A DNA stretch of 64,000 nt. Origin: a candidate division FCPU426 bacterium (GTDB lineage: Bacteria > Oederibacteriota > Muellerivitia > Muellerivitales > Muellerivitaceae). Shown one piece after another: positions 19,092 through 51,337 of the stretch. A model generated the notes under the pieces. That model was not told the origin of the DNA. It saw only the letters and a program-made list of their open reading frames with translations, and did not search any database. A program made the position numbers and the translations under genes. The stretch is taken from the NCBI GenBank assembly GCA_963796105.1, contig CAWCKJ010000003.1, positions 512,001 to 576,000 of the forward strand, given 5' to 3'. Positions within the stretch are counted from its first letter, which is position 1; each line of letters starts with the position of its first letter.

Positions 19092-19202
19092 GTCAAGGGC
19101 AACCCTTCGGGTCACCACTTGGGCGGGCATGGAACCCCGCCCAAGTACACGGCTAGGCTCCTGGGCAAGCCCGGAGCTTTTGGAGCCGGTCATTGGGCTA
19201 AA
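19092..19202 (-). ncRNA. Structured non-coding element, copy 1 (candidate cis-regulatory RNA or MITE)
   Basis: Homologous to 20993-21103 and 51102-51337, with compensatory changes in the stems. Confidence 0.55.
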
Positions 19203-19276
19203 TAATTCGTTAGCTATATCAGTTTGATATTTTTATGGAATATTTCCATGTGCCGGCCATCTGGGACAACTAAAAC

Positions 19277-20956
19277 TTATTGAATTTCCCGGATCAGATT
19301 GTTGTAAGTATCTGCGACATAAATAGTTTCGGAAGAATCAACTGCGATTCCTATGGGTTCATAGAAAGATGCGGTGGTCCCCGTTCCGTTTGTAGATCCA
19401 GGAACACCAGCCGACCCAGCCAAGGTCGTCACCACACCACCAGGAGAAATTTTCCGGATCAGTTGGTTGCCGGTATCTGCAACGTAAACATTTCCACAAG
19501 AATCGACCACAACTCCACCAGGACCACCAAACGATGCAGCGGTCCCCGTTCCATTGGCGGACCCCCAAGCCCCAGACCCCGCCAGGGTCGTCACCACTCC
19601 ACCTGGGCTGATTTTCCGGATCAGATTGTTGCCACTATCCGCAACGTAAACATTCCCTGAGGAATCAACCGCGACTCCAGCGGGACTACTGAACGATGCG
19701 GCTGTACCCGTTCCGTTGGCGGACCCAGCAACCCCGATTTGGCCCGCTAGGGTTGAAACCACTCCCCCAGGGGTAATTTTATTGATCGCGTCACCATTGC
19801 TTTCCGAGACGTAAACATTTCCGGAGGAATCGACCGCGATTCCAAAGGGTAAATTGTAAACTTGGGCAAAGGTCGTCACCATACCCCCAGGAGAGATTTC
19901 TCGGATCAGTTGGTTGCCACTATCCGTTACGTAAACGTTTCCAGAGGAATCGACCGCGACTCCCCAGGGCTGATTGAACGATGCGGCTGGTCCTGTTCCG
20001 TCAGCATACCCAGTTACTCCTGCCGACCCCGCCAGGGTCGTTACCACACCGCCGGAAGTAATTTTCCGTATAATATTGTTGTTGAAATCAGCAACGTAAA
20101 CGTTACCGGAGGAATCGACCGCTATTCCAGTAGGATTATTGAACCAAGCGGCAGTCCCTGTTCCATTGATAGCTCCAGCATAACCAGATCCTGCCAAGGT
20201 CGTCACTACGGCACCATTGGCAGGGCAAAGAGTAGACGTAATAGTGGCAGTTGGCGTGAGCGTCGACGTTCCAATCGAGGTAGTGGTCGAAGTCGGTGTA
20301 TCTGTCGGCGTCATCGTGTATGTCCAAGTTGGTGTTTCGGTTGGGGTGGACGTGAAAGTAAAAGTAGTCGTAGGAATCATAGTTGTTGAGGTCGTCGTCG
20401 GAGTTGGCGTATTTATCGGCGTATTTGTTGGCGTCATTGTGGGCGTCCAAGTTTGTGTATCGGTTGGGGTGTATGAAAAAGTAAAAGTGGTGGTAGGATT
20501 CATGGATGTTGAAGTTATCGTTGGAGTCGGCGTATTCGTGGATGTCTCTGTCGAAGTCATCGTTGGCGTCCAAGTTGGTGTATCGGTTGGGGTGGATGTG
20601 AAGGTAAAAGTAGCCGTTGGAATCATGAATGTTGAGGTTGTCGTTGGAGTCGGCGTATTCGTTGGTGTATCTGTGGGCGTTTCGGTTGTGGTGGATGTGA
20701 AGGAAAAAGTTATAGTAGGATCTATGGGCGTTAAGGTCGCCGTCAAGGTGGGTGTACCAGTCGCCGTACCGGTGAATGTATTTGTGGGAATAAATCCTGT
20801 TGCTGTGGGGGTATTCGTCGGTGTGAAAGCCGGGGTATTGGTCGCGAGCGGTATTGGCATAGAAGGTGTACTAAAATTTTTGGAGCACCCGGTCATGAGG
20901 GCAAAAATTAATATCACCAAAACGGCTGTTTCCTGAAGTAGCGGCTTTCGTTTCAT
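19277..20956 (-). CDS. Lipoprotein with long Thr/Pro linker and C-terminal NHL-repeat propeller
   Basis: ATG 20956 after GGAG; lipobox LMTGC; about 41-aa Thr/Pro tandem units; six [18 protein letters not shown] repeats. Confidence 0.88.
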
Positions 20957-20992
20957 ATTTGTCTCCGGACCTGGACGACAATCCGAAAATGC

Positions 20993-21103
20993 GTCAGGGG
21001 CAACCCTTCGGATCGCCACTTGGGCGGGCATGGAACCCCGCCCCAGTACACGTCTAGGCTCCTGGTCAAGCCCGGAGCCTTGGCAGCCGGTCATTGGGCT
21101 AAA
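20993..21103 (-). ncRNA. Structured non-coding element, copy 2
   Basis: Near-identical to copy 1; its 5' edge abuts a minus-strand TATAAT (21103-21108). Confidence 0.55.
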
Positions 21104-21166
21104 TTATACTGATCACATCTTCTACCCTATAGACGGCTTAAAGTTGTTTTATTGCATATATATTTT

Positions 21167-22579
21167 CACTCTTGTCCTAAATAAAGGCCTAAAAAAAGAC
21201 GCCTCCGATTGAAGTAGAATTGGATTTGATGACAGCCCAAAGCAACGGTTACCAGCCGTCGCTACTTCAAACATACGGAGGCGCTTTTTTATGGTACCAC
21301 CAACCAGTCTATTTGCCCAAGTGTTGAAACTCGTAGACCGAACCGCTTTTGAGCGAATCGTGCGAGAGATTGAAGCCGAAAAGCACTCCAAGGGATTCAG
21401 TTGCTGGGATCAGTTTGTTTCCATGCTTTTCTGCCAGATGGGAGCAGCCCATTCCTTGAGGGAAATCTGTGGCGGCCTCAGTACGGCCCTTGGGAAATTG
21501 ACCCACTTGGGTCTTTGCAAAGCTCCCACTAAATCCACCTTGGCCTATGCCAACGCCAAGCGTTCTTGGCGGGTTCAACAAAAGCTTTTTTACCATTTAT
21601 TATCGAAGTGCCAGTTGTTGGCGGCCACCTCAAAAAGAAAATTCAGGTTTAAAAATCCTCTTTATAGCCTGGATTCCAGCACCATCGACCTTTGTTTGTC
21701 AGTGTTCGACTGGGCGAAATTCCGTAGAACCAAAGGGGCCATCAAACTCCATCTTCTGCTGGACCATCAGGGGTACTTGCCCTGCTGGGGACTCGTAACG
21801 GAGGGAGGCACGCATGACGTGAAGGTGGCCCAAAAGCTCGATTTTCCAGTGGATTCAATCGTGGTGATGGATCGGGGGTATGTGGATTTCTTTCTTCTGG
21901 CCCGATGGACATTCCAAGGCGTGTGGTGGGTGACCCGGGCCAAGATCAACATGGCCTACGAGGTGGTGAAAAGCCTGACGGTTCCGAAAACGGGCAACGT
22001 CCTGAAGGACCAGGTGATACGGTTGACGACGTTTCGGTCACATGAAGCCTACCCTAAAGAGATGCGACGGGTGGTGGTATGGGACGAAGACCAGAAGCGG
22101 GAGTTGGTGTTCCTGACCAACCACATGGGTTTTGCCGCCTCGACGGTGGGTGCCATTTACAAGGAACGTTGGCAGATCGAGTTGTTTTTCAAGGCTCTCA
22201 AGCAGAACCTCCGGGTAAAAACTTTTGTGGGTACCACTGAGAATGCCGTTCAGACGCAGATTTGGACAGCATTGATTGCCATGCTACTGTTGAAGTTCCT
22301 TCAATTGAAGAGCCGGATCGCCTGGAGTTTATCCCACTTGGCTGCCATGCTACGGATGAACCTGTTGACCTATCGTGATTTGTGGGCCTGGTTGGATGCA
22401 CCGTTCCTAGTGGCGAGACTGGAACCTTTGGAAAAGCAGATGGAATTAATACATTCTTAATTTGGACAGCATCAGGACGAAAGAGGGGGGGCTTATCCCA
22501 GAAAATTCACGAGCCTGTCCTAAATCGCTTGTTTTCCTGGGAGGTTCAAAGACAAATAGGTTTATCTAGGACAGCAGTG
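21167..22579 (+). mobile_element. IS4-family insertion sequence, apparently intact (1413 bp)
   Basis: Ends CACTCTTGTCCTAAATAAA and TTTATCTAGGACAGCAGTG are inverted repeats; 9-bp target duplication ATATATTTT at 21158-21166 and 22580-22588. Confidence 0.92.
21291..22460 (+). CDS. IS4-family DDE transposase
   Basis: LDSSTIDL, VMDRGY, YKERWQIELFFKALKQ (YREK signature). Confidence 0.95.
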   Translation: MVPPTSLFAQVLKLVDRTAFERIVREIEAEKHSKGFSCWDQFVSMLFCQMGAAHSLREICGGLSTALGKLTHLGLCKAPTKSTLAYANAKRSWRVQQKLFYHLLSKCQLLAATSKRKFRFKNPLYSLDSSTIDLCLSVFDWAKFRRTKGAIKLHLLLDHQGYLPCWGLVTEGGTHDVKVAQKLDFPVDSIVVMDRGYVDFFLLARWTFQGVWWVTRAKINMAYEVVKSLTVPKTGNVLKDQVIRLTTFRSHEAYPKEMRRVVVWDEDQKRELVFLTNHMGFAASTVGAIYKERWQIELFFKALKQNLRVKTFVGTTENAVQTQIWTALIAMLLLKFLQLKSRIAWSLSHLAAMLRMNLLTYRDLWAWLDAPFLVARLEPLEKQMELIHS

Positions 22580-23024
22580 ATATATTTTAACAAATAAATA
22601 AAAACTTTGGTAATTTAAGTGTTTTAAACTCCTTACTTGTTAAACTTTACCGCACTTTTTTTCCATTAAACGCAATTCCTTGATTATTGGGAATTGGCGT
22701 TCGTAGAACAATTTTCGCGTGAAATGTTAATTATATTTGTGCGGGTTAAAGCGGGTCACGAATTAGGCAATTTCGGTAAAACGAGGCTTAAAAGGTCATA
22801 TTTACAAAAAAGCCAAAGGTATAAGGATATTTGCGGGGTAAGCCCGCAGAGGGGTTTATTTGGAATTAGAATTCTCGTCCAACACCTTATCCAACCGGCT
22901 TTTTTGGTCGTCCGTGATTTCTGTAGTGTTCACAAAATATCTTCCGGTTCTGGCGTTACCAGCTTGAGAGGTTTTCCGCCTCGGGTTCTTTTGACAAGTT
23001 GAAAATTTTCCAACGTCTCGTGAA

Positions 23025-23104
23025 AGAAACAAAGGGGTCAGGCCATCATTCAACACTTTATAAAAAATAGAAACAAAGGGGTCAGGCCATCATTCAACAC
23101 TTTA
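23025..23104. repeat. Perfect 36-bp direct repeat, two copies 8 bp apart
   Basis: AGAAACAAAGGGGTCAGGCCATCATTCAACACTTTA at 23025 and 23069. Confidence 0.9.
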
Positions 23105-23297
23105 CGAGCCACATCTCGCTGCATCTCGCGTCGGGCATCCAAAAGCTCACCACGTCGAAAGACATGGGGTCGAGTCTTGTGAACAAGGGGTCAGACTCCA
23201 CGCTCCGCAGCGTGTAGTAGGGTACATATTACACTTTAAACCCAACCACCGGACCCATCCTAAACCCATCTAACGTTTTACCCAACCATGCTAAACA

Positions 23298-23603
23298 TTA
23301 CTTTTTAGATCGATAATGCGCTTTACCAATTTCTTTTTTTGAAATTGGCACACCCAAAGCTTGCGCCTCGGCTTGTAGCCTCGGCACAGGGGTTTTTTCG
23401 CGGACGACCGGGACTTTCTCATCCACATTTACATATACAGCTTTGCCGTTGCGCATGACGGCAATGGGAAGACCTAAACGCCTATGTTCCTCGATGACGC
23501 CATCCACAGCCAACTGAAGGGCTTTCTCGGCCCTCAGCCCCTCCGGAGTCGGTCGATTAGAAACGCGTTGTTTCTTCAATGCGGTTTTTTTAAAAGCTTT
23601 CAT
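23298..23603 (-). CDS. Putative antitoxin partner of the zeta-like ATPase
   Basis: Overlaps the upstream gene stop by 4 bp; AVDGVIEEHRRLGLPIAVMRNGK; second copy at 25042. Confidence 0.7.
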   Translation of the reverse strand: MKAFKKTALKKQRVSNRPTPEGLRAEKALQLAVDGVIEEHRRLGLPIAVMRNGKAVYVNVDEKVPVVREKTPVPRLQAEAQALGVPISKKEIGKAHYRSKK

Positions 23604-24187
23604 CTAACCCTCTTCAACATTTCAACAATTCTACCGTAAATTTCGGGCAGTATAATGCTATCTTTCCCCGGGGACCGCTCAAATACCAGCCGGGGCGTGG
23701 ATGAGGAATTGTCGAATATCGCGCAATAATCAACCAAGTACATATAAATATCAAAGAGATTTCGCAATCCTTTGTCATAACGACGGCGCGCAACTTCCGC
23801 CGGAATATTATGCCCTCCTAAACGCACCCTGTCGGCAATCCGCTTGAGAGCCAAAGGAATCCCAGGTATCCAAAGGAAATAAAGCCTGATCTCATACCCC
23901 TTGTGGCGCAGTTCCTTAAACAGACGAATATATCCCATACCGAAAAGCGTTGTTTCAAAGCCAAACCCGGTCCCACGCCGGACTTGTTCCCGGATGCTTC
24001 CCATGAAAAGCCTGCCGGCTTGAATGGCCGCGGCGTCAACATTGAACGGTGACAATCCCTTCGCGATCAAGTCGGCGTTGATGAAATTGCGGCAGTCGGC
24101 GATCTTGGGCAGGTACTGGGTCGCGAAAGTAGTTTTACCCGAGCCGTTCGGCCCGGCGATCACGTAAACAACCGGTTTTGTTTTCAC
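23600..24187 (-). CDS. Zeta-toxin-like / AAA P-loop kinase
   Basis: IAGPNGSGKTT, FINADLIA, FETTL, RVRLGGHNIP. Confidence 0.88.
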   Translation of the reverse strand: MKTKPVVYVIAGPNGSGKTTFATQYLPKIADCRNFINADLIAKGLSPFNVDAAAIQAGRLFMGSIREQVRRGTGFGFETTLFGMGYIRLFKELRHKGYEIRLYFLWIPGIPLALKRIADRVRLGGHNIPAEVARRRYDKGLRNLFDIYMYLVDYCAIFDNSSSTPRLVFERSPGKDSIILPEIYGRIVEMLKRVR

Positions 24188-24286
24188 ACAACACCTTCTT
24201 TGAACATTGGGACTTTTACTTTGAGCTGTTGGAGGGTGCTCATTGTATTCATGGAAGTATTCTAGAGAAAATAGTTAGGAGTGAGG

Positions 24287-24360
24287 AGTTAGCCCCAACT
24301 GTTTTTTAACAGTTGGTACAACCAAATCTCGTCATTCGCCTTGTAGGCTCACGACAGGTG
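24287..24360. repeat. Dispersed REP-like structured repeat, short form
   Basis: Colinear with 27897-28075; flanked by TTAGGAG/TGAGGAG heptamers. Confidence 0.85.
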
Positions 24361-24388
24361 AAGTTAGGAATTGGTCATTAACCACTGA

Positions 24389-24929
24389 TTAACGAACCCG
24401 ATAAAGCGACTTTTTTTCCTCGAGATACCCGATCCGCCGTTTGGGTTTCTCCGGCACTTTCATCAGATCCCTTAAAGCATCGAAAACAGCCTGGATTTTC
24501 GCGTCTTGGGAACCAACTTTTTTCTCCAAGGCTTCCAATTTTCGAGCTAAATCCTTATGAACCGCCAAAGCTTCCCTAAGGCGTATAAACGCTCGTACGA
24601 CGAAAACACTCATTCTCACAGCTTGTTTGCTATTGAGGACGTTTGCCACCATCATTGCCCCGTGCTCGGTAAAGACATATGGCGGAAAACGGGGGTCACG
24701 ATGCTTCTGGGAACCGGTCGCAAATTGCGACCGGTTCAAATCCTCCACCTCAGGCCCAGAAAGGCGAAACATGAAATCATCAGGGAAACGGTCTTTATTA
24801 CGTCTAACCTGTTCGTTCAAGCGTTTCCGTCTGGACTCCATAAATACGCGCTAAATCGGCATCCAAAATAATGAGAATCAATCCCTCGACAACAGCCGGA
24901 ACCTTATATTCACCTTGTTCTTCCGTCAT
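24389..24929 (-). pseudogene. ORF6N-domain DNA-binding protein, frameshifted near 24830
   Basis: ATG 24929 after GGAGG gives ...ILDADLARIYGVQT, then another frame KRLNEQVRRNKDRFPDDFMFRL...PYVFTEHGAMM. Confidence 0.85.
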
Positions 24930-25041
24930 ATACACCTCCAAGCCTTAATCTTGATATCGCAAATTGCGATATCAAACCGGTCGCAATTTGCAACCGCATC
25001 AAACAACCGGATTATTTTAAAACCCCTAAAAAACTCTGAAA

Positions 25042-25278
25042 TTATCGTTTTGCCCGATAGCGCGCTTTGGGCTCGTTCACGGCCGGGACTATCTCAGCCA
25101 CATTTACATATACAGCTTTGCCGTTGCGCATGACGGCAATGGGAAGACCTAAACGCCTATGTTCCTCGATGACGCCATCCACAGCCAACTGAAGGGCTTT
25201 CTCGGCCCTCCGTCCTTCGGGAGTCGGTCGATTAGAAACTCGTTGTTTCTTCGATGCGGTTTTTTTAAATGCTTTCAT
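25042..25278 (-). CDS. Second copy of the putative antitoxin
   Basis: About 95% identical to 23603 over the first 60 aa; part of the 229-bp duplication. Confidence 0.7.
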   Translation of the reverse strand: MKAFKKTASKKQRVSNRPTPEGRRAEKALQLAVDGVIEEHRRLGLPIAVMRNGKAVYVNVAEIVPAVNEPKARYRAKR

Positions 25279-25363
25279 CTAACCCCCTTCAACATTTCAA
25301 CAATTCTACCGTATATTTCGGGCAGTGAGCGCAATAGGATCACGTCATTCTTTTGTGATACCA

Positions 25364-26422
25364 TTAATGGCGCGTGGACTCGATTCTCTCCCATAGGGCA
25401 TCCCGGCCCTTACCCAGGCACCTGATGAGACCTTTGCCCTTCAAATCCGACAAAGCCCTTTTTAAAGTCGGATAACTGACCCCGGGACAAGCCTTTTGCA
25501 AATCGCCGAATTTGAACTGTTGGGACAGGCGCGTGACAGCGTTCTGGACCATTTCACGTTTGGCGCCCTTCGCGCTGGTGATGGACCCCATCCGAGCCTC
25601 GAAATCATCGTAAGCGGCTGTCAACATGCCCAGGAAATATTCCCACCATGGCCTCGTGTCATGGCGGGCCGCATGCCAATCCTTGGAACTCTTCAGAAGA
25701 GTTTCATAGTATGACTCTTTGCTTTGCTCCACCACCCGTTCCAAGCTGATATAACGACCCACCTCAAAACCCTGCTGATAAAGAAGTAAAAGCGTCAAGA
25801 GGCGGCCCAACCTGCCATTGCCGTCCATGAAGGGATGAATGCATTCAAAGTCCAGGATGAAGGAGGCCACCAGAAGAAGGGCGTCCACTTTTTCCTCATC
25901 CAAAGACTTTTGATAATATTCCAGCAATTTTTCCATGAACTCGGGCGCCGCCAAAGCGGAAACCGGTTTGAACCGGACAGCCGCTTGCCCGCCAGGCTTT
26001 ATTTCCAGGATGGCGTTATCCTTGCTCTTCCAATGGCCGCCATTTTCGGGAGTGTATCGATACATGCGACGATGCCAGTCCAGGATCAGACCGGTTGTCA
26101 ATTTCATGCGAGAGTGGTTGGTGTGGATATCAGCCAGAACATCCCTGTAACCGGATACTTCCTGCTCGGAACGGTCCTGTGGTTTGGTCTTTCCAGTCAC
26201 CAAGGGGGCCAGACGGTTGGGAGAGACAATGATACCCTCGATACGATTGGAGGATTCAGCGCTTTGGATCATCGCCACTTGGCGCAGGGTTTCAAGAATT
26301 TCCGGGGACTGGTCAGTGTGCATATCTTGCCGGCCCCGATACTCGCCCAACACCCTAAGAGACTTGCCCAGTGAATGGCCCAAGGGAGTATCCAACAAAT
26401 AGCCATGTTCGAAAGATTTCAT
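25364..26422 (-). CDS. Fic-domain protein (class II)
   Basis: HPFMDGNGRLGR; SNRIEG inhibitory motif; C-terminal wHTH. Confidence 0.92.
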   Translation of the reverse strand: MKSFEHGYLLDTPLGHSLGKSLRVLGEYRGRQDMHTDQSPEILETLRQVAMIQSAESSNRIEGIIVSPNRLAPLVTGKTKPQDRSEQEVSGYRDVLADIHTNHSRMKLTTGLILDWHRRMYRYTPENGGHWKSKDNAILEIKPGGQAAVRFKPVSALAAPEFMEKLLEYYQKSLDEEKVDALLLVASFILDFECIHPFMDGNGRLGRLLTLLLLYQQGFEVGRYISLERVVEQSKESYYETLLKSSKDWHAARHDTRPWWEYFLGMLTAAYDDFEARMGSITSAKGAKREMVQNAVTRLSQQFKFGDLQKACPGVSYPTLKRALSDLKGKGLIRCLGKGRDALWERIESTRH

Positions 26423-26985
26423 GTCATTTCCTTTATAAAAACACTTAGGGCGGGGCGGCCTATTAATAGTATCACGAAATAGATTCTTGATACCATTATT
26501 TTCAGGGATCGTTTTTATGAAAAGACAACGGGGTCAAGTCTTCATTTTATATTCAGAAAACCTTTTCACGATACCCTGATCCCCCACCAAGCCCTTCCTT
26601 TGCACCGTGCACCGATACCCAGTCCCATTCTTCCCAAAACTTTTAGTCCTTGGCCTTCGACTTAAGCAGATCGTTATTTGGGTTCATTTTTCTCTTGGAT
26701 ATTTTATGTAGCGTACTGATTCTCATTACCCCTTCTTCTTTTTGCCTTTTCCCTTCTTCGTATCCTCGCCCATTTCATCCCCCAATTATTTTTCCAATTC
26801 CTCGATGGTGGGTAATCCGGTTTTTCGAATACAAGCAGGGGTATTTTCTTACGCGAAGGCAATTGTGCAAGGGGTCATTGCACAATTGACCGTTCCGGCC
26901 ATGCCGCCGCAAGGGTTTTTAAGAGAATCAATGATTTCCGTATCAGGCATGGCCATAAAAGCCCCCTAACAATTATATTTTCGAT

Positions 26986-27228
26986 TTATTCCCCTACCAT
27001 TTGGTCCGCCAAGATGTTTCCGGTGGTTTGATCTATCACAATCACTCTTCCCCCGCCCAGATGAGGCGTGCCAGAGGGGCAAAAAACGCACCAAACATCA
27101 TCGCCGGATAAGTCCGACGCTCCATAAAGGTTTAGGTCCTTCGGAATCCCATGGACGATTTTGAAATCGCCCATCGTACCCGCCACCTTGTTTTTCGCGA
27201 TCTCAAGCGCATTATTTTGATCTATCAT
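26986..27228 (-). CDS. Small hypothetical protein
   Basis: GGGAG RBS upstream, 80-aa globular-looking sequence; no family recognised. Confidence 0.55.
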   Translation of the reverse strand: MIDQNNALEIAKNKVAGTMGDFKIVHGIPKDLNLYGASDLSGDDVWCVFCPSGTPHLGGGRVIVIDQTTGNILADQMVGE

Positions 27229-27851
27229 AATTTGAATTCTCCCTTACTTCTTATTCCCCACGAAGTTCATGGCTGAATTTAAAGCCGAATAACTCGAAAG
27301 TTTCTTTACGGGTAAAAAAGACACCGTCCGTTACACGCAAGAAGCCGGATTCTTCCATCCCCACCCGGAAATTGCCGTCTTTCTGGGCCCCTTTCAGGGC
27401 GTCATAATGCTCCATCCCTGTGTAAATTTTCCCCGAGATCGGGTCCTTGATAGCGGCCGTGAAAATCAGATTTGTTAAAGGGTTCAGTCATAAAAACCTA
27501 TTTTTTGGGTTTGTGATATTTAAAAGGTTTATCGCATTCAGTGCAAAGCAAATCCTTGCCTTCGGCGCCATCCATCCCACATCCGCCCAAAACCAGCTTA
27601 CCCTCGCTCATCAATTTCTCCATGCCCTCGCTCATATAGGGCCATTCCCCAAAGAATAACTGCCACTTTCTCGGACGAGCAATAGGAGCATTTTTGCCCC
27701 TTCAGGGTCCGTTTGGTTTCCCGAATCATTCTCAGGTCTTCTTCATCTATTTTCATTCGCAATCACCTCATGACTTTGTTTGATCTACAAGAATAGATTA
27801 CACCAGGGTACGGACAATCCTAAAAACGACCCAAATAAATGAAATTAGGGG

Positions 27852-43600: not shown

Positions 43601-43813
43601 GAAATTGTCCGAGCAGAGGGCATTGGTGTTGGAGTTTAAATAGGAAAGGACATAGGTGACAGAGTCCCCCGGCGAGGCGCTCGGGGCATTGGCGGTTTTG
43701 GCAAGGGTAAGCTGGGCCAGGGCGTCCGAAGGCGCAAAAAGCAGGGTGAGACCAGCCAATAGGGTCCCATGGAATAGGAGGAAGATGGGATTGGTTTTTT
43801 GCCTTCTTCTCAT
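40622..43813 (-). CDS. Large secreted protein: DUF11-like and beta-sandwich N-terminus, about 500-aa Thr/Ser/Pro linker, C-terminal FlgD-Ig-like domains
   Basis: Signal; LTLAKTA..PGDSVTYVL and VTDTLPAGL (DUF11); WNGLGPNGQTVPNGYY and WDTRNQKG..ASGLYLVV. Confidence 0.8.
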   Translation of the reverse strand: MRRRQKTNPIFLLFHGTLLAGLTLLFAPSDALAQLTLAKTANAPSASPGDSVTYVLSYLNSNTNALCSDNFEADVLGSFPSGWVSSGGAWTVVADNGPASVGTQALQGVAAANTYPYLLNGCASQVGDGNIQADMKIANGGSRNGVLLFRFNGTGTVNGSNYQTLIGVGNTNNVALGYWNVATGNYTGLATGSAAIAVNTWFTAKFEALGTGPVTLNLWINGTLAVSSTTAFAIPTGQGGLQANNGSTIRFDNVSIVKYPLSYNVTVTDTLPAGLSYASSSGAPAVTGQRIVWNLGNLSGGASGALTAVGIVNICGISLINTAEADSSTPKLSVISNAVTTLLSACTPTPSNTPSTTGTPTPSRTASPSPSPTSTGTPTVSLTPTLSPTKTSSPTSTFSATSTPTGTPTNTPTKTFTSTSTYSSTPTPTASFTGSPTPTPSLTMTFTLTFTSTPTDSATPTLTNTVTWTPTPSATATNTPTLSATSTLSPTKTPTPTLTITLTPTNTPSLTSTQSFTDTSTPTFSSTPSSTPSFTLTETQTFSPTPTSTPTYTASYSPTLTPTFTLTNSPSVTPTSSFTDTPTSSHSNTPTLTLTLTYTSTETPTDSATSTPTSTYTPTSSPTPTLTVTNSPSETPTNTMTVSATPTLTYTPTDTSTWTMTASPTYTPTSTITNTLTVTPANTPTETETFSSTYTSTMTLMATNTPSLTPTSTLLTPTYSSTYTPTGTLTDSPTATSTYSESPTMTFTETLTQTPSYTPTWTSTSTLSATSTMTHSPSLTSTATFLTPALTDTPTFTPTNTPSATQAFSPTLTLTLTSTSTNTPIFSWTSTPSYSSTPSPSSTNSPQVTLTPTYSVTPTPIVSGCLQAIGIYDERGEQVASLCGNTVLQAGEVLVLDVSNFISDNNGKGGSVTLTVNGQAVAVWNGLGPNGQTVPNGYYHFVLQETIAGGNPIILSRDAYIGGISAEPVLFTAKPNLLRGGGMLQLSATSSGFALAVQAEAKVYSLSGELIRDLPLVKGSAVWDTRNQKGQESASGLYLVVLDWKNPVNGARTKRSLKVLIIR

Positions 43814-44128
43814 TTTACGGTTTCCCCGGAATCGTCGATAAGTGTTGAGGCGCCCTGTTAAAAGGGAGCTGGTTGCCGTGAATGGGATGGCAAAATATTT
43901 TCGGCCGATAGTAAGACTTAAAAACTTCGCCCGCCGCTATTCAAGAAGCATAAACTCGAAATGGAATCCCCTTTGCTGACAGCAAACCTTCGCAATGGTA
44001 CACCGGGAAGCGGCGGTTATTCAATTCAAGCCCCGGGTTTATACGTTAAAACCGTTATAGTCCGTGAATTTTTGGAGGAGATTCATCTAAAAGTGTACGG
44101 GAAAGGGTGAAAAGCCAGATCTGCCAAG

Positions 44129-44470
44129 TCAGCATTCCAGGCGCTTGGCGTCGCACCAGAGACCCTCCAGGTCATAGTAGGCCCTGGCGTCCTCCTTGAA
44201 AACATGCACCACAACATCCACGAAATCCAAAACCCACCAGCTTCCGTCCTTGGAGGAATTGGTCTTCCAAAGCCCCTTCCGGTCGGAGAGTTTGTCCGTG
44301 ACACCCGTTACGATCGCGTTCACGTGGGGGTTTGAGTTTCCGCTGCAGACCACAAGGACGTCGGTGTAGGAGGCCAGCCCCTCCATGTCCAGGGCCTGGA
44401 TGTCGATGGCTTGCTTGTCCTCCAGGTGGGAGACGATCTCCTCCAGCAGACTGCTAGTTTTCTTTTCCAA
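44129..44470 (-). CDS. rsfS: Ribosome silencing factor
   Basis: DKQAIDI, VVCSGNS, WWVLDFVDVVVHVF...YYDLEGLW. Confidence 0.93.
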   Translation of the reverse strand: MEKKTSSLLEEIVSHLEDKQAIDIQALDMEGLASYTDVLVVCSGNSNPHVNAIVTGVTDKLSDRKGLWKTNSSKDGSWWVLDFVDVVVHVFKEDARAYYDLEGLWCDAKRLEC

Positions 44471-44478
44471 TGTTTTCC

Positions 44479-44745
44479 TTAACGCGGATGATTTCGGACC
44501 TGCTGGACGGCCTTCGCGAGCTCGACCAGGATGTCCGTCTTGAACTGTTCCTTCAACTCCTCCAGTTTCGTGAACACATAGCCCTTTTCCGTGACGATAT
44601 AGCGCGCCGGGAGGTGGTTCAGGGCGAAGGCGAGGATATCCAGCCTGTCCTTCTCGGAGGGATGGAAGCCCTGATAGGCCGGCTCCTCCAGAAGCTCGGC
44701 CAGGCTTTTCTTGACCGCCTCCTCCATGTAATTGATCAGGTCCAC
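44479..44745 (-). CDS. ComFB-family protein
   Basis: LINYMEEAV...DILAFALNHLPARYIVT...VRNHPR. Confidence 0.85.
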   Translation of the reverse strand: MDLINYMEEAVKKSLAELLEEPAYQGFHPSEKDRLDILAFALNHLPARYIVTEKGYVFTKLEELKEQFKTDILVELAKAVQQVRNHPR

Positions 44746-44759
44746 GTTGCCCTCTTCCC

Positions 44760-45383
44760 CTACAGGTATAGCTGGTGGTTGTGAATATACTGCTCCACGG
44801 CCTCAGGCACCAGATACTTGATGCTTTTCCAATCCCGGACCCTTTGGCGGATCTGGGTGGAGCTCACGTCGATATAGGTCCCCCGCTCCACGAGGATGTT
44901 CTCAAGCAGGCTCGCCGGAACCTCCCCGCCCTCGGAACCTGGAAAACGTCTGTTCGGAATCAGGTCCGTGTTGAAACCCGGCCTCGACACGGCGACGAAC
45001 TTGCAGATCTCCAGCATCTCCTCGATGTTCTTCCAGGCCGTGATATCCATCAGGATATCCGCTCCGACGATGAAGTAGATTTGAATCCCTTCCGGGAATA
45101 ATTTCAAGAAGTGTTTTACGGTGATGATGGAGTATGATTTTCCTCCCTGGGCGATCTCGAAATCGGACACCTCGAAGCAGGGGTTGCTGACGGTGGCCAG
45201 GTGCGCCATGACCAGGCGGTCGCGGGCCGCGGCGAGGTCCGAGGGGTTCTTGAGGGGATTCAGGAAGGCCGGGATGAAGATGACCTTGTCCAAGGAGTAC
45301 TTGGCGCGGATTTCCTCGGCCACCACCAGATGGCCGGTATGGATCGGGTTGAAGGTGCCGCCGAAAAGGCCGATGGCTTTCAC
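44760..45383 (-). CDS. nadD: Nicotinate-nucleotide adenylyltransferase
   Basis: GGTFNPIHTGH, FIVGAD, VSSTQIR. Confidence 0.96.
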   Translation of the reverse strand: MKAIGLFGGTFNPIHTGHLVVAEEIRAKYSLDKVIFIPAFLNPLKNPSDLAAARDRLVMAHLATVSNPCFEVSDFEIAQGGKSYSIITVKHFLKLFPEGIQIYFIVGADILMDITAWKNIEEMLEICKFVAVSRPGFNTDLIPNRRFPGSEGGEVPASLLENILVERGTYIDVSSTQIRQRVRDWKSIKYLVPEAVEQYIHNHQLYL

Positions 45384-45387
45384 GCTC

Positions 45388-47157
45388 TCAACGCTCTTCG
45401 TCCTTCAACAGCGAGTCGATCATGTCCCCGGTGAGGAATTCCGTGTCGCCCTTCTCCTCGGTTGGAGTCAAGCCGGGAGCCGGAGCCGACGCCGCTGGTA
45501 TGGGCAATGAACTCGAGACCGGGGCGGTTTTCTTCGTGTCTTTCCCCGTCTTGGGCAGGTCCGGTGCGATTGCCGCAACTGTGGATATCACCCTTCCCTT
45601 CGCGGCCTGGACGAGCTTATCGAGTTCATCCTTGGTGAGGCCGCTCGTCGCGGAAACTTTCATCTGCTGGGTCTGGCCGGTTGCGACGTTCTTGGCCGTG
45701 ACATTGACGATGCCGTTGGAATCGATGGCGAAAGTGACCTCCACCTGGTTGGTCCCGGCCGGGGCCGGGGGCAGTCCCACGAAGGAGAAAAAGCCCAAAG
45801 TCTTGTTGTTGCTGGCGATCTTTTCCTCGCCCTGGAGGACCTTGACGTTCACGGAGGTCTGCATATCCTTCACGGTGGAATAAAGCTTGCTCATGCGGGT
45901 CGGCACGGTGGTGTTGCGGGGTATGATGACGGAACAGGTCCCTCCCAAAGTCTCCACGCCGAGCGAAAGGGGGGTGACGTCCAGAAGGAGGGCGTTGCGG
46001 ATGTTTCCGTTGATGATGCCGGCTTGGATGGAAGCCCCCAGGGCCACCGCCTCGTCCGGGTTGACCTTGACGTTGGGTTCCTTGTTGAAGAAGCGCTTCA
46101 CCACGTCGCGAACCTTGGGAACCCGGGTCATGCCACCCACCAAGAGGACCTCGTTCAGATCCTTGGGATTCAAGTTGGCGTCCTTCAAGGCCCTTTTGCA
46201 GGGCTCCATTGTCCTCTCGATCAAGGGATTGACCATGGTCTCGAATTCTTCCCTCGATAGGTTGTAGGCCAGGTTCACGAAACTGCCTTCCTTTTTCGAG
46301 ATGAAAGGCAGGTTGATGGTCGTGGTGGCGGCGGTGGAGAGGTCGCATTTAGCCTTTTCCGCGGCTTCCCTCAGGCGCTGGAGTGCCACGGGCTCCTGGC
46401 GCAGGTCGATCCCGGTCTCCTCGATGAACTTGCCCAGGACCCACTCCATGAGGATGTGGTCAAAATCATCCCCGCCCAAATGCGTATCCCCGGACGTGGA
46501 AAGCACCCTGTAAAGGCCGTTAAGGAGCTCCAGCACCGTCACGTCCAGGGTTCCACCGCCCAGGTCGTAAACCACGATCTTCTGGTTTTTCTTCGTGTCA
46601 AAATCGTAGGACAATGCCGCTGCGGTAGGCTCGTTGATGATCCTCAAAATGTCGTAGCCCGCTATTTTTCCCGCGTCCTTGGTCGCCTGGCGCTGGGAAT
46701 CGTTAAAATAGGCGGGCACCGTGACGACGGCTTGAGAGATCCTCTCCCCGAGGCGCGCCTCGGCGTCCTGCTTGATTTTCCGGAGCACGATCGCGGAAAT
46801 TTCCTCGGGGGATTTGACCGTGTCTCCCAAGCTCACACGGATATCCCCGTTCTCGGATTCCACCACGTCATAGGAAACCAGGCTCTTGTCCCGTCTGACC
46901 TCCTCGTCATTGGCTTTGCGCCCGATGAACCGCTTGATGGAGGAAACCGTCCCCTTGGGATTGGTGATGGCCTGGTGTTTCGCGTCCAAACCCACGAGCC
47001 AATTCTTCTCGGCCGTCAAGGCCACGATGGAGGGAGTGGTATGGTAGCCGTCGGAGTTGGGAATCACCGTGGGTTCACCGCCGTTCAAATAGGCGACGCA
47101 GGAATTGGTGGTCCCGAGATCGATCCCAATCGCGATTTCCTTGCTTTTATCGGCCAT
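45388..47157 (-). CDS. dnaK: Hsp70/DnaK paralog lacking most of the helical lid
   Basis: GIDLGTTNS, NEPTAAA, DLGGGT, LLLDVTPLSLG linker; ends soon after GLTKDELDKLVQAA. Confidence 0.9.
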   Translation of the reverse strand: MADKSKEIAIGIDLGTTNSCVAYLNGGEPTVIPNSDGYHTTPSIVALTAEKNWLVGLDAKHQAITNPKGTVSSIKRFIGRKANDEEVRRDKSLVSYDVVESENGDIRVSLGDTVKSPEEISAIVLRKIKQDAEARLGERISQAVVTVPAYFNDSQRQATKDAGKIAGYDILRIINEPTAAALSYDFDTKKNQKIVVYDLGGGTLDVTVLELLNGLYRVLSTSGDTHLGGDDFDHILMEWVLGKFIEETGIDLRQEPVALQRLREAAEKAKCDLSTAATTTINLPFISKKEGSFVNLAYNLSREEFETMVNPLIERTMEPCKRALKDANLNPKDLNEVLLVGGMTRVPKVRDVVKRFFNKEPNVKVNPDEAVALGASIQAGIINGNIRNALLLDVTPLSLGVETLGGTCSVIIPRNTTVPTRMSKLYSTVKDMQTSVNVKVLQGEEKIASNNKTLGFFSFVGLPPAPAGTNQVEVTFAIDSNGIVNVTAKNVATGQTQQMKVSATSGLTKDELDKLVQAAKGRVISTVAAIAPDLPKTGKDTKKTAPVSSSLPIPAASAPAPGLTPTEEKGDTEFLTGDMIDSLLKDEER

Positions 47158-47206
47158 GTTTCACCTTATTAATGGACTTTAAGCTTTATTTTAGTCTTCA
47201 GGGGCT

Positions 47207-47773
47207 TCAAACTTTTTTTCCATAAACATAACCCATCGCCACACTCAAAGTTTTCTTAGCTTCATAATCATCAGGGTTTAATTTCAAAACCCTCTCGACA
47301 CAAGCCACCGAATCCTTGAAATTCCCCTGGCATCCGTACAAAATTCCCAGATTATAGTGGGAGTTGACGAAGCCTGGCACCAGTTTGATGGCCGCAACCC
47401 ACTCGTGCTGGGCCTGGTTCCAATCGTCCTTTTCCTCGAAAAAAGCCACCCCTTTTTTGAAGTAATCCTCCGCCTCAATCTCCTCTTTCGTCTTGATGAT
47501 CTTGAGAAGCCCGCGTTTCACCCCGACCATATCCCCGGTTTCGCGCCGGATGTCGTTTCGGACCTGAAAATTATACGCTTCCCTTTTTTCCGGGTCACTT
47601 AACACGTTGTAGGCCGTCACGATTTCCATGGTTTGCTCGATGGCCCATTCCAGCCGGTCAGGGTTCCGGTCCGGGTGGTTTTCGAAAATGAGGTGTTTAT
47701 ATGTCTCCTGTAATTGCTTGGGGTCCAAGGGCGGATAAAGCTTGAATATCTCGTAATAATTTTTTTTGATCAT
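47207..47773 (-). CDS. J-domain protein with TPR repeats
   Basis: NYYEIF...HPDRNP...AYNVLSDPEKREAY; C-terminal TPRs. Confidence 0.9.
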   Translation of the reverse strand: MIKKNYYEIFKLYPPLDPKQLQETYKHLIFENHPDRNPDRLEWAIEQTMEIVTAYNVLSDPEKREAYNFQVRNDIRRETGDMVGVKRGLLKIIKTKEEIEAEDYFKKGVAFFEEKDDWNQAQHEWVAAIKLVPGFVNSHYNLGILYGCQGNFKDSVACVERVLKLNPDDYEAKKTLSVAMGYVYGKKV

Positions 47774-47917
47774 GAAAGATAAAAACCGTCCGGTTGCAGA
47801 TTCCAGTCTTTGGTTGCAGAAATCAAAAAAATCATTGTCAATTTTGCTAAGTTTTTATTTTACAAACAATACAGGTCGAAAGAAATACCCTAAAGAAATT
47901 TCGGCAGCTAAAACCCA

Positions 47918-49060
47918 TCAAATTTCAGTCAACCGGACCATATTGTCCCGGTGGACCACCTCATCGGCGGACTTAAAGCCGAGTTTCTTAGTGATCTCAA
48001 AAGACTTCAATCCCTTGATCTGACCCAAGGCGTCCGAGGAATAATTGCAGATCCCCTTGGCGATCTCCCTCTTCTGGGTGTCCAGTATCTTCACGATGGC
48101 GCCTTCCTCCCAAGTTCCAGCCAGTTCCCTCACGCCGCTTGGCAGGAGGCTGGTGTTCCTCTCCACCAGGGCCTTGCGCGCGCCCTGATCCACGATGATC
48201 TCCCCTTCCGGCTTGACGCTGTAGGCCAGCCACCGCTTGCGGCTGCTCATCTTGTGCGGGGCCGGGTGGAAATAGGTCCCTACGCTCCTGTTCTGGAGCA
48301 GGTGCCGCAGGACGTTTTTCCGGAGACCGTTGGCGATCGCCATGGGGATTCCAGACTGCATCATGCTCTTGGCGGCCTTGATTTTGGTGGCCATTCCTCC
48401 CGTCCCGACCATGGACCGGGAGTTCGTGGCTTCCCTCTCGAACCGGGGGTCCCATTTGTAAACGTCCCGGATCAGTTTCGCATCTGGGTTGGCGTTCGGG
48501 TCCTGGTCATAAAAGCCGTCCGTATCTGTCAGGGAAACCAGCAAATCCGCGCCAGCCAAGTGGGTGACGAGAACCGCCAAAGTGTCGTTGTCCCCGAACT
48601 TGACCTCCTCCACCGCCACGGTGTCGTTCTCGTTGATGACGGGGATGATTCTCTTTTTCAGTAGCTCTAGGAGCGTGTTGCAGGCGTTAGAATAGCGGTG
48701 GCGGTGGGAGATGTCGTCGCGCGTGAGAAGGATCTGGGCGACCCTCAAGCCGGATTTCTTGAAATTCGCCTCATAAGCGTGCATGAGCTTGCTTTGGCCC
48801 ACCGCGGCGAGCGCCTGAAGCATCGAGACGCTTTTCGGGCGCTTGGGCATCCCCAGCTCGAACAATCCCGCCGCGATGGCGCCCGAGGTCACCAGGAGAA
48901 CCTCGAACTTATCCTTTTGGAGCTTGGCGATCTGCTCCGCAAGGCTTTCCAGGAAGGAAACCCTGATTTTCTTCCTCCTCGTGTCGGTGAGCAGGCTGCT
49001 TCCAACCTTGACGACGATCCTGCGTACTCCCTTGAAGTCGCGGGGCCTCTCATTTTCCAC
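47918..49060 (-). CDS. proB: Glutamate 5-kinase
   Basis: VVKVGSS, INENDTV..FGDND, GTGGMATK, PUA domain. Confidence 0.97.
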   Translation of the reverse strand: MENERPRDFKGVRRIVVKVGSSLLTDTRRKKIRVSFLESLAEQIAKLQKDKFEVLLVTSGAIAAGLFELGMPKRPKSVSMLQALAAVGQSKLMHAYEANFKKSGLRVAQILLTRDDISHRHRYSNACNTLLELLKKRIIPVINENDTVAVEEVKFGDNDTLAVLVTHLAGADLLVSLTDTDGFYDQDPNANPDAKLIRDVYKWDPRFEREATNSRSMVGTGGMATKIKAAKSMMQSGIPMAIANGLRKNVLRHLLQNRSVGTYFHPAPHKMSSRKRWLAYSVKPEGEIIVDQGARKALVERNTSLLPSGVRELAGTWEEGAIVKILDTQKREIAKGICNYSSDALGQIKGLKSFEITKKLGFKSADEVVHRDNMVRLTEI

Positions 49061-50348
49061 GGAAACCCTCCACCCGGTCGGACCTGAAGACCATTTCTTC
49101 CTCGCCCATGAAAACCGTATTCCCCTCTTGGACGCCCATTTTCTTGAGCTCCTTCAGGACGCCCATGCGGCCCAGGATTTTATGGAACCTCTCCACCGCA
49201 TCCTGGGTGTCAAAATTGGTCATGGAAACCCATTTGTCGATTTCCTTTCCGGTCACCCGGTAGTGGTCCCCTTCCCTCTTTATTATAAATCTCGGCTCGG
49301 TCCTGTACAAAATTTCCCGCGCGGGCGTCTTCACGGCGGAATCCGCCGTGGGCGACAGTCCCAGGGTCTTCCAAGCCTCCTCCATCAATTCCCTCAATCC
49401 CTCGCCGGAGACGGCGGAAATCACGAAGGCGGGGGTGCCCTTTTGCCGTATTTTAACGGCCCATGATTCCAAGGGTTCCCTGGAGGAAACGGCGTCAACC
49501 TTGGTCAAGGCGACGATCTGGTGTATTTTCTTGAACTTCGCGCTGTGCTTGTAAAGCTCCTTGTTGATGATCCGGATTCTCTTTACCATGTCCGAGTAGG
49601 CGGTCAAGGTCGCGGAATCAACTAGGTGGATGAGGACTTTAGTACGCTCCAGATGCCTCAGGAAACGGATGCCCAGCCCCTTGCCCTGGCTCGCTCCCTC
49701 AATCAAGCCCGGCACGTCCGCCAGGATGAAACTCCGCTCCCCCGGGAGGTAGGACACGCCCAGCTGGGGTTCCAGGGTGGTAAAGGGATAATCGGCGATT
49801 TTAGGCGTGGCCTTGGTAACCCGGGAAAGAAAGGTTGATTTTCCGGCGTTGGGGAATCCCACGATTCCCACGTCGGCCAAGAGTTTCAATTCCAGCCTCA
49901 GGTCCTTCTTCTCTCCCGGCTCTCCCTTTTCAGCCAGCCTCGGAGCGTGCGTGGTAGAAGTTGCGAAAGTGGTGTTGCCGCGCCCCCCCCGCCCGCCCTT
50001 GGCCGCCAGGACCCTCATGCCGTCCTGGTTCATGTCGGCCAGAAGCTCGTTCTCCGCTGACCAAACCATTGTTCCCACCGGGACCCGGATCACGATTGGC
50101 TCCGCGTCCCTGCCGTGCTTGTTCTTGCCCTTGCCGTGCTCCCCATGACGCGCCCGGTAAAGGGGGCGGTAGATGAAATCCACCAGGGTGCGGACATCGT
50201 TGCGGGATTCCAGGAAAACATCCCCGCCCCTTCCGCCGTTGCCCCCGTCGGGCCCCCCCCGGGGGATGTATTTTTCCCGCCGGAAGCTGAGACAGCCGTT
50301 GCCGCCGGCGCCGGCTTCGAGGGAGATTGTGACTTCATCGACAATCAT
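49050..50348 (-). CDS. obgE: GTPase ObgE
   Basis: FRREKYIPRGGPDGGNGG, GFPNAGKST, YPFTT, DVPG. Confidence 0.98.
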   Translation of the reverse strand: MIVDEVTISLEAGAGGNGCLSFRREKYIPRGGPDGGNGGRGGDVFLESRNDVRTLVDFIYRPLYRARHGEHGKGKNKHGRDAEPIVIRVPVGTMVWSAENELLADMNQDGMRVLAAKGGRGGRGNTTFATSTTHAPRLAEKGEPGEKKDLRLELKLLADVGIVGFPNAGKSTFLSRVTKATPKIADYPFTTLEPQLGVSYLPGERSFILADVPGLIEGASQGKGLGIRFLRHLERTKVLIHLVDSATLTAYSDMVKRIRIINKELYKHSAKFKKIHQIVALTKVDAVSSREPLESWAVKIRQKGTPAFVISAVSGEGLRELMEEAWKTLGLSPTADSAVKTPAREILYRTEPRFIIKREGDHYRVTGKEIDKWVSMTNFDTQDAVERFHKILGRMGVLKELKKMGVQEGNTVFMGEEEMVFRSDRVEGFRGK

Positions 50349-50381
50349 GGTTTATCACCTAGGGGCGGAAGGCCCTGAAAC

Positions 50382-50410
50382 AAAAAAACCCCACCCGGGG
50401 GTGAGGTTTT
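50382..50410 (-). terminator. Rho-independent terminator after rpmA
   Basis: Minus strand AAAACCTCACC-CCCG-GGTGGGGTTTTTTT. Confidence 0.75.
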
Positions 50411-50431
50411 CACTGCGCTCGATTGGGTTCT

Positions 50432-50692
50432 TCAGACTTTCACCGGCTCGACGCTGATTTGTTTTTTTCCCTTCTTGAACTCGCGGAAAGTCACCAAACC
50501 GGAGATCTTCGCGAAAAGAGTGTCGTCTTTTCCCAAGCCCACGTTAAATCCGGGCTTGTATCGCAAACCTCTTTGGCGCATCAAGATGCTTCCCGCCGTG
50601 ACGTAATTGCCCCCGTAGGCCTTGAGGCCCAAGCGCTGGCTGTTGCTGTCCCTGCCGTTGCGGGAGGAACCACCCGCTTTATGCTGACCCAT
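50432..50692 (-). CDS. rpmA: 50S ribosomal protein L27
   Basis: [22 protein letters not shown]. Confidence 0.98.
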
Positions 50693-50706
50693 TTCAAACC
50701 TCCCTG

Positions 50707-51021
50707 TTAACCCGCGATGATCTTCTCGATTGAAACCTTGCTGAATTTCGGCCGGGAACCCTTGGTTTTCATGGTGTTCTTGCGCCGCTTATACCTGAAG
50801 ACCCGGATTTTCTTGCCCTTGGTCTCCGCGACGATCTTGCCGGTGACCTTTGCCTTCTCGACATCCGCGCGCTTGGCCAAAAGCTGACCACCGTCCATTT
50901 GAAGGCCGACAAGCCTGAATTCCACCGCGTCGCCCGGATTGCCCTTCAACCGGTTGACCTGGATGACATCACCTTCTGATACTCGGTACTGTTTACCGCC
51001 AGCTGCTATCACTGCGTACAT
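50707..51021 (-). CDS. rplU: 50S ribosomal protein L21
   Basis: [14 protein letters not shown]...YKRRK. Confidence 0.98.
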
Positions 51022-51077
51022 GGTTTCTCCCTGGAAAAGTGCTCAAGGCCCGATAAAGGGGGCCCGAAAGAGGTAAA

Positions 51078-51106
51078 AGTCTATTCAGGAGGCCCCACCT
51101 TGTCAA
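51078..51106 (-). promoter_or_regulatory. rplU sigma70 promoter
   Basis: TTGACA-17 bp-TAGACT. Confidence 0.8.
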
Positions 51107-51337
51107 GGGCGACTCTATGAGTCGCCACTCGTGGTTTTCACTGCCCTCTTCCGAAGGAAGATGGGTGGCCGGGAATCACGCCCCGGCCAAGTACACGGCT
51201 TGTGCAGATCCTTCAACAAAAACACAAAGAGATCGGCGCGATGCCAACCTCTTTAAACGCTTTTTGGAGGGTTGGCATGTGCAGATCCCCAATAAAAACA
51301 TAATGAGATCGGCACCAAACCAGGCGGTCAAGCTAAA
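51102..51337 (-). ncRNA. Structured non-coding element, copy 3 (expanded form)
   Basis: Shares GTCAAGGGC, CCACT, CCAAGTACACGGCT, CGGTCA and GCTAAA blocks with copies 1 and 2; carries extra hairpins. Confidence 0.55.

Follow-up and report, generated by a model that had tools for sequence, protein, structure and literature searches.

Three structured repeats in a candidate division FCPU426 genome are two insertions of a mobile, gene-less DNA element of about 100 bases

A stretch of 64,000 nucleotides from a candidate division FCPU426 bacterium (GenBank assembly GCA_963796105.1, contig CAWCKJ010000003.1, positions 512,001 to 576,000; hereafter the window, whose own numbering is used for positions given without a contig) carries three related structured repeats on its minus strand, one of them upstream of rplU and the other two (copies 1 and 2) upstream of genes that the initial annotation took for two NHL surface proteins, of which the one after copy 2 matches the NHL repeat strongly and the one after copy 1 gives a single weak match. 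The common motifs and stem changes described for the three repeats are present in the sequence, and two readings had been proposed for them, a new cis-regulatory RNA or a non-autonomous mobile element. We conclude that they are two insertions of a DNA element of about 100 bases that encodes no gene and is mobile, and that they are not a riboswitch.

Empty alleles and the limits of the element

Sites lacking the element were looked for, and found, both in the other genome of the same genus (G001) and in a paralogue within the window's own genome (G000). At the rplU locus, G001 has both flanks and a single TTGAC, with no element; for copies 1 and 2, the 5' region recurs at the paralogue on contig C4 and at two G001 loci, where a single TGAC stands and the element is missing. 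These alleles place the insertion directly 3' of TGAC, without target duplication. The comparison also works in the other direction, as three G001 copies have clean empty alleles in G000, one after TTGAC (L054) and two after TTAC (L062 and L052), the last of these interrupting an open reading frame and having an empty allele that differs by one base in the target. Together with rplU, these are the clean filled/empty pairs from four of ten comparisons between the two genomes; in the remaining six a clean empty allele was not obtained, and four low-share DNA sequencing runs yielded short contig pieces only, with no junction across the element. The exact pairs, along with ends that can be named as those of IS200/IS605, bear out the second of the two proposals.

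Where the parsing did not demand it, the dinucleotide AC still directly precedes the element in 76 of 78 copies, and T occupies position -5 in 86 of 104. The TGAC at the right-hand end is not a target duplication, because copies with other targets never repeat them on the right (0 of 38 for TTAC and 0 of 16 for TCAC). The empty alleles also correct the limits drawn earlier: TTTAGC, formerly the left boundary, is host DNA, the element starting right after TGAC, and the TATAAT at which copy 2 was said to begin sits 13 bases outside the element, in the host flank.

The typical form, of 97-100 bp, consists of an outer stem enclosing hairpin 1, followed by hairpins 2 and 3 and by a tail with TGAC at its end (Table 1). 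Terminal inverted repeats are absent, the two ends differing in all aligned copies, and palindromes (hairpins 1 and 3) lie near both termini. Core-deleted forms of about 50 and 30 bp exist, as do longer forms with extra modules, up to a few hundred bp. The element is too short for a transposase gene, and a Y1 homologue is absent from the element-bearing loci (no match with tblastn of three Y1 proteins). The conserved structure with compensatory changes that had been claimed is confirmed: folding surpasses that of shuffled sequence, as RNA with z = -3.7, -2.1, and -5.0 for copies 1, 2, and 3, respectively (-4.1 for copy 1 folded as DNA), and in an alignment of 30 copies from several genomes 94% of the cells pair, with two-sided changes in 14 of 27 pairs, a level of covariation reached by none of 500 shuffles, slid controls pairing at 32-53%. 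In this set, two-sided changes are many in hairpins 1 and 2, while hairpin 3 is nearly invariant; in more distant copies, the arms of hairpin 3 stay paired via compensated changes, and its loop takes inserts.

The alignment of copies 1 and 2 extends over 193 bp, taking in the flanks on either side and the first part of the open reading frame, and the two have private changes in common. Because of this we consider them one insertion that was duplicated afterwards, so the three repeats, earlier treated as independent copies, trace back to two insertions. The region around them is an insertion-rich island, as judged by its IS4-family and IS1595-family transposase genes (21291-22460 and 6798-7706), which are unrelated to the element's ends, and it also contains Fic, zeta-toxin-like and ORF6N genes.

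Table 1. Positions in the window of the element copies, their parts and the adjoining genes
Feature	Positions	Strand	Remarks
Copy 1, 97 bp	19092..19188	-	Ends set by empty alleles: paralogue G000:C4:1263750 and G001
Copy 1, target and left cleavage word TGAC	19189..19192	-	Host DNA, retained in the empty allele
Copy 1, left guide AAAG	19177..19180	-	Predicts TTAC; one of the two tested pairs mismatched with the TGAC target
Copy 1, hairpin 1 (left imperfect palindrome, IS200 type)	19158..19176	-	Folding and similarity to IS200 ends
Copy 1, outer stem around hairpin 1	19188-19184 with 19154-19150	-	
Copy 1, hairpin 2	19117..19146	-	Alignment and covariation of copies
Copy 1, candidate right guides in hairpin 2	Loop CATG 19131-19128; 3'-arm CAAG 19121-19118	-	
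Copy 1, hairpin 3	19098..19116	-	Most conserved part of the family; loop accepts inserts in some subfamilies
Copy 1, terminal TGAC	19092..19095	-	Putative right cleavage word; belongs to the element, not a target duplication
Copy 2, 97 bp	20993..21089	-	Layout as in copy 1
Copy 2, parts	Guide AAGG 21081-21078; hairpin 1 21077-21059; hairpin 2 21047-21018; hairpin 3 21017-20999	-	
Copy 2, target TGAC	21090..21093	-	Host DNA; empty alleles G001:C45 and G001:C33
193-bp segment (flank, element, start of open reading frame)	19014..19206, duplicated at 21107-20915	-	
Copy 3, 225 bp	51102..51326	-	Hairpin 1 and left guide lost; empty allele in G001
Copy 3, target TTGAC	51327..51331	-	Original rplU -35 box, now displaced upstream
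Copy 3, nested three-unit insert	51203..51314	-	Second, REP-like long-hairpin repeat
Copy 3, extra hairpin module of the longer element form	51130..51166	-	Also in the copy at G000:C14:8023-8157
rplU promoter-like site TTGACA-17-TAGACT	51078..51106	-	First five bases from the element, the rest host
rplU (ribosomal protein L21)	50707..51021	-	Host gene
NHL-repeat protein gene after copy 2, 559 residues	19277..20956	-	C4 paralogue has an empty 5' region
Gene after copy 1, 674 residues	17031..19055	-	One weak NHL match

Correspondence of the left guide with the target

In IS608, which inserts 3' of TTAC, a four-base guide sits at the 5' foot of each palindrome and base-pairs with the cleavage word (PMC3201880), the pairing being crosswise, guide base 1 with target base 2 and guide base 2 with target base 1 (PMC5934647). 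We compared, in 124 copies, the four bases before hairpin 1 with the four bases before the element, leaving out copy 2 (a duplicate), a copy whose boundary was unclear, and unparsable left ends, that of copy 3 included. Hand-set offsets or patterns placed 21 of the 124 copies, and AC was forced by the parser for 46, hence only the first two target positions were tested. Both pairs (G1:C2 and G2:C1) hold in 77 copies versus 44.0 when guides are permuted within genomes, with p = 5e-5, a value that overstates the effect, as guides within a subfamily are shared by descent. In the window's genome alone, both pairs are found in 23 of 31 copies, versus 9.1 expected; the wrong pairing register gives 61 and 50 matches, against 83 and 110.

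The support for the rule lies in five guide classes, each matching its predicted target: AA with TT (41 of 54 copies), CA with TG (14/17), GA with TC (15/35), AG with CT (4/8), and AT with AT (2/2). The respective guide/target sets of the subfamilies are AAGG-TTAC, CAGG-TGAC, GATG-TCAC, AGTG-CTAC, and ATGG/ATAG-ATAC; subfamilies with different guides would therefore use different targets. Copies 1 and 2 combine an AA guide with TGAC, a one-pair mismatch that is found in six of the 54 AA-guide copies.

Dispersal of the element and the copy at rplU

In place of the only three copies known at the outset, the 4.98-Mb genome holds 31 with both ends, among 44 sites (fragments included) detected by profile and motif searches; the 11-base core alone occurs 20 times. 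No additional copy inside the window was detected with a covariance model of the right half. The copies of the window do lie in 5' regions and on the strand of the gene, as had been pointed out, but this does not hold generally: the nearest downstream long open reading frame is on the same strand for 23 and on the opposite strand for 21 of the 44 sites (25 versus 19 with copies 1 and 2 rescored). We thus attribute the co-orientation within the window to chance, because the two orientations are nearly equal in number genome-wide. Relative to GC skew, 25 of the 44 sites share one orientation, and the skew of this draft genome is too weak and patchy to be informative on a preference for the lagging-strand template, as expected of IS200/IS605 elements.

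Outside the genome, the exact right-end pattern was recognized in 19 metagenome stretches and in 65 stretches of two assemblies, one labeled as an uncultured Planctomycetales (G041) and one as Candidatus Omnitrophota (G042). The former label may not reflect placement, because G041 is listed among the relatives of G042. With one mismatch allowed, there are 58 matches in G041, 20 in G042, and five in G100, all three genomes being outside the 99 genomes of the window's phylum, and four of the 151 genomes of the set in which they were searched match. The search of relatives by covariance model that had been called for brought further homologues, the model of the right half being positive in 15 of 30 other genomes of the window's family, in none of 68 other genomes of the phylum, and in six of 150 genomes around G042, three of them weakly. 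The element is common to two phyla, and the patchiness of its spread over them suggests horizontal transfer. Plasmid and phage collections gave no match; viral contigs gave none either, and the 5 and 27 pattern matches obtained from them are at chance level.

A few further copies are worth describing. The segment G000:C14:7325-8949 is 99.9% identical to G001:C61 over 1625 bp, including the element, in species otherwise 70-90% alike, and a second copy, at C14:4285, is likewise common to both genomes; this near-identity reflects either recent transfer or a shared bin. Another copy, L040 (G002:C5:39212), apparently lies within a coding region, after CGAC. In some of the copies from G041, G042, and metagenomes, hairpin 1 or 2 is inverted in place or is a perfect palindrome, with the guide destroyed; these changes are probably due to template switching after insertion.

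One subfamily, of 30 copies in eight genomes of the family (L278-L351; one copy in G000, C4:144203-144366), has a hairpin 3 whose loop is longer by about 55 bases. Its length is nearly fixed, with 90-97 bases from hairpin 3 to the end and 25 of the 30 copies at 93-95; identity in the interior is 50% versus 85% for the ends, around a conserved TTGAT, and copies within a single genome differ from one another. The insert has no covarying pairs among the 30 copies, the long-loop loci had no match to the element above chance in Rfam, and G001 does not have the flanks of the long-loop copy. As to what the insert might be, we rejected a guide to its own site (the longest match to its own flanks averages 5.9 versus 6.0), a product of a diversity-generating retroelement (no base bias) and a reading frame (stops in 14-29 of the 30 copies in every frame). 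A SAM riboswitch starts about 40 bases after one long-loop copy (L343:723-858, G015:C143), with the element outside it. Elsewhere in the window's genome (G000:C2:364138-366661), a CRISPR-like array is found, with a regularly spaced palindromic repeat ending in ATTGAAAC and unique spacers.

At rplU, the element is inserted after the TTGAC of the promoter, and its own terminal TTGAC rebuilds the -35 box. It was thus correctly noted that the end of copy 3 supplies the -35 of rplU; however, the box pre-existed, as G001, G002, G003, and G018 have TTGACA at this position without the element. The idea of a portable -35 delivered by the element is also contradicted at the level of the family: a -10 box at the right spacing accompanies 5 of 102 copies versus 5.1 in shuffled flanks, and promoter creation as a family trait is rejected, since the total equals the shuffled expectation. 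Boxes resembling -10 are found next to 4 of 18 TGAC-target copies versus 1 of 84 others (Fisher p = 0.003 in a post hoc test, with copy 3 outside the set), which fits occasional landing of such copies in existing -35 boxes rather than promoter delivery. Copies that target TTGAC could land in -35 boxes and rebuild them, making for near-neutral insertions, as at rplU.

The extra hairpins reported for copy 3 are present, but in part they belong to a separate repeat nested in it, one built of paired AT-loop hairpins, to which hairpin 1 has been lost; copy 3 is probably immobile. This second repeat forms 95 clusters of at least two units in the genome, with tandem arrays on C2 (112810, 120620, and 158426), while its single-unit count is noisy (558 versus 234 in a reversed control). 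It is strongly over-represented inside complete elements, being found in 6 of 31, where an even spread would give about 0.016 per 100 bp of intergenic sequence (12% intergenic assumed). The element copies of G042 carry a different repeat of like build.

Right end, mobilization and rival explanations

The right end is a non-canonical one for IS200. In the IS200 elements examined, it comprises a guide, a palindrome, about four bases and the cleavage word. The last bases of the element are TGAC in 97 of 106 parsed rows and TGAT in six, and there are two CANG words that fit TGAC as guides, both within hairpin 2, one in the loop and the other in the 3' arm, next to the foot of hairpin 3. Between the CC(A/C)C arm of these candidate guides and TGAC come 22-32 or more bases and two hairpins. 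The loop guide (CATG, CAGG or CACG, right before the CC(A/C)C arm) is found in 77 of the 106 rows, a few being mis-registered or loop-inverted, and the arm guide (CAAG or CAGG, one base before hairpin 3) in most copies. If the loop guide is used, hairpin 2 would be the duplex of hairpin 1 closed at the other end, that is, a permuted palindrome; if the arm guide is used, hairpin 3 would be the right palindrome. The arm word is the better conserved, yet it is also held by stem pairing and buried in hairpin 2. We regard the two as close to balanced, leaning slightly toward the loop guide because it abuts the same CC(A/C)C arm as is found at the left end. The more elaborate proposal, of a rearranged IS200 right end with a permuted palindrome, a loop guide and a separate terminal stem that supplies the cleavage word and has a loop serving as a cargo slot, filled in the long-loop subfamily by its hypervariable insert, by which the element would be a retargeting, cargo-carrying, phylum-crossing, and -35-sparing mini-transposon, is one that we put forward tentatively and hold to be doubtful.

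As to the enzyme, the genome has 16 Y1 matches. Two of them are identical, intact genes for a 142-residue IS200 TnpA (NF033573), on C7 (G000:C7:20655-21080) and C14, both with the end palindrome CCACGGGCTTGCCCGTGG, the guide rule obeyed at both ends, CTAA as the target and CTAT as the right word. In the G041 copies, hairpin 1 has exactly the sequence CCACGGGCTTGCCCGTGG; between this palindrome and the local hairpin 1 there is one compensated change, A-T to C-G. Related IS200 elements carry either form at their ends, and hairpin 1 is identical or nearly so to IS200 end palindromes in G000, G112, and G162. The local IS200 has gene-less derivatives of its own in the genome (C4:1415305, C4:510797, C4:33666, C9:60516, C11:73834, and C14:38390), with CTAA as the target, both palindromes, and the last tnpA codons kept, two of them ending in CTAC with a changed right guide. 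A related TnpA, of 50% identity, is encoded in G042. The other 14 matches are genes of 312-317 residues (two partial) between short perfect inverted repeats, of the TIRtron type (L003-L016; PMC3733652); these are found on C2, C3, C4, C6, C7, C11, and C12 and, many being nearly identical, have been recently mobile.

The element is of the PATE type; it is gene-less, has an IS200-type left end and sits 3' of (T)NNAC without duplication, and we consider it quite probable that it is moved as single-stranded DNA by an IS200 TnpA acting in trans. By analogy with IS608, hairpin 1 would be the binding site of TnpA, and the left cut would be fixed by pairing of the target word with the four bases at the 5' foot of that hairpin; the right cut would fall after the terminal TGAC, and the strand would leave as a circle and enter anew behind another word that the guide matches. 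In a Geobacillus study, one TnpA excised five families with differing targets, and right-end spacing was flexible (bioRxiv 2023.03.14.532601).

Several observations weigh against this scheme, besides the shared descent of guides. The guide rule is loose, with 47 of the 124 copies, copies 1 and 2 among them, missing at least one pair; two small guide classes misfit, TA (0/4) and TT (0/3), and the long-loop subfamily fits both pairs in only 10 of 23 copies on a rough parse. IS200-type TnpA was not found in G001, G041, and G100, incomplete assemblies with many element copies, nor in G002. A parent with an open reading frame and the right end of the element was not found among the 65 genome stretches, the 19 metagenome stretches, and 40 further regions, nor was a left module with a distant right arm around an open reading frame, and none of the 24 tnpA loci examined has a right palindrome that hairpin 3 resembles. 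Mobilization by IS200 TnpA is therefore something we infer.

With regard to known systems, the element has all five PATE features along with the left-end features of IS200/IS605. The PATEs of Haloquadratum walsbyi (PMC3119063) and Geobacillus stearothermophilus (bioRxiv 2023.03.14.532601) likewise have no terminal inverted repeats, have palindromes at the ends, cause no duplication, are non-coding and show strain-specific insertions, and they also have core-deleted forms of about 50 bp, arising through deletion between repeated arms; the Haloquadratum PATEs were invaded by SMR-A repeats (PMC3119063), in parallel to the long-hairpin repeat described here. Unlike PATEs, the element does not consist simply of the two ends of a known insertion sequence joined together, has three hairpins and a right cleavage word following a hairpin dissimilar to the left palindrome, uses at least five target words, spans two phyla and has its last 28 bases nearly invariant. 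With IS608 and the tnpA-only IS200 (PMC3201880, PMC5934647), it has in common the insertion 3' of a tetranucleotide, the four-base guide in the same register and the right word inside. The local IS200 and the element have the same palindrome sequence, but the former targets CTAA and the latter NNAC, and the element has no tnpA. The REP, REPIN, BIME, and TIR repeats of RAYT and TIRYT are also short, dispersed, mostly intergenic palindromes linked to HUH chemistry, while the element differs from them in its fixed ends, precise empty sites, target-following guide and absence of clustering with Y1 genes (PMC3733652); it is the repeat nested in copy 3, and not the element, that is REP-like. A description of this family was not found in the open literature (ISfinder, subscription journals and PATE supplements lay outside the search), and three 14-base motifs of the element had no occurrences in the open literature searched. 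The several natural targets, the non-canonical right end and the subfamily with a hypervariable loop of constant length are new features.

Of the rival explanations, the one that survives best, if still an unlikely one, keeps the same element and the single-strand mechanism and assigns them to another HUH (Y1) enzyme, either TIRYT or a TnpA clade recognizing hairpin 3. TIRYT-like Y1 genes are present in all the main carrier genomes (G000, G001, G002, G041, G042, and G100), including those in which no IS200 TnpA was found, and GTCCCTT, at the end of the element, is similar to inverted repeats belonging to two of these genes (L142 and L149); however, the resemblance extends over only seven bases, the TIRYT-like genes have terminal inverted repeats of their own with no element copy at their ends, and the IS200 clade is indicated by both hairpin 1 and the guide rule.

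Far less plausible is that the right half is a remnant of a TnpB/IscB omega-RNA, with the copies still making guide RNAs for a nuclease acting in trans. PATEs often encode omega-RNAs (bioRxiv 2023.03.14.532601), longer right halves of the element fold into branched forms, and the terminal TGAC adjoins a variable flank; against this, no TnpB over the cut-off was detected in G000, G001, G002, G041, G042, and G100 (control positive in 8 of 14), no IscB RRXRR domain was detected in G000 (a weak test, the control being silent), there is no match to the Rfam HEARO or IS605-type families, and the right half common to the copies is only about 60 nucleotides.

The proposal of a new cis-regulatory RNA, a riboswitch or leader of the downstream genes, is largely refuted, and we give it hardly any credence. 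Its appeal lies in the strongly covarying structure and in the position of the window's copies, but orthologues of rplU and of the NHL gene have 5' regions without the element, it is randomly oriented with respect to genes, the L052 insertion is inside a coding region, and covariation of an internal word with the outside flank would be meaningless for a riboswitch. Nor does Rfam offer a match: only two tRNAs were recognized in the window, and nine element loci gave no match at gathering score, with best E values of 1.9-3.2. IS91-type transposons insert at a tetranucleotide without duplication, and the lack of duplication together with a fixed target word would suit any HUH element, but a miniature derivative of such a rolling-circle transposon is the least credible of all, as a target following an internal guide is a signature of IS200/IS605, hairpin 1 is an IS200 palindrome, and no Y2 transposase domain was detected in G000 (a weak test, with a silent control). 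A classical miniature inverted-repeat transposable element is rejected, as there are neither terminal inverted repeats nor target duplications.

Overall, a false riboswitch lead is removed, and, the mechanism itself being already known, the gain is incremental unless the readings of the right end or of the cargo hold. For the guide code of IS608, the family does provide a natural test set, in which more than 100 independent insertions of one short element represent at least five guide/target pairs. Should the permuted right end be true, the substrate rules of TnpA would be wider than IS608 and ISDra2 suggest, and this would bear on programmable modules of 100 bp for single-strand integration. 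The TTGAC-targeting subfamily also illustrates how a selfish element could occupy the promoter of an essential gene, rplU being an example, while costing its host little.

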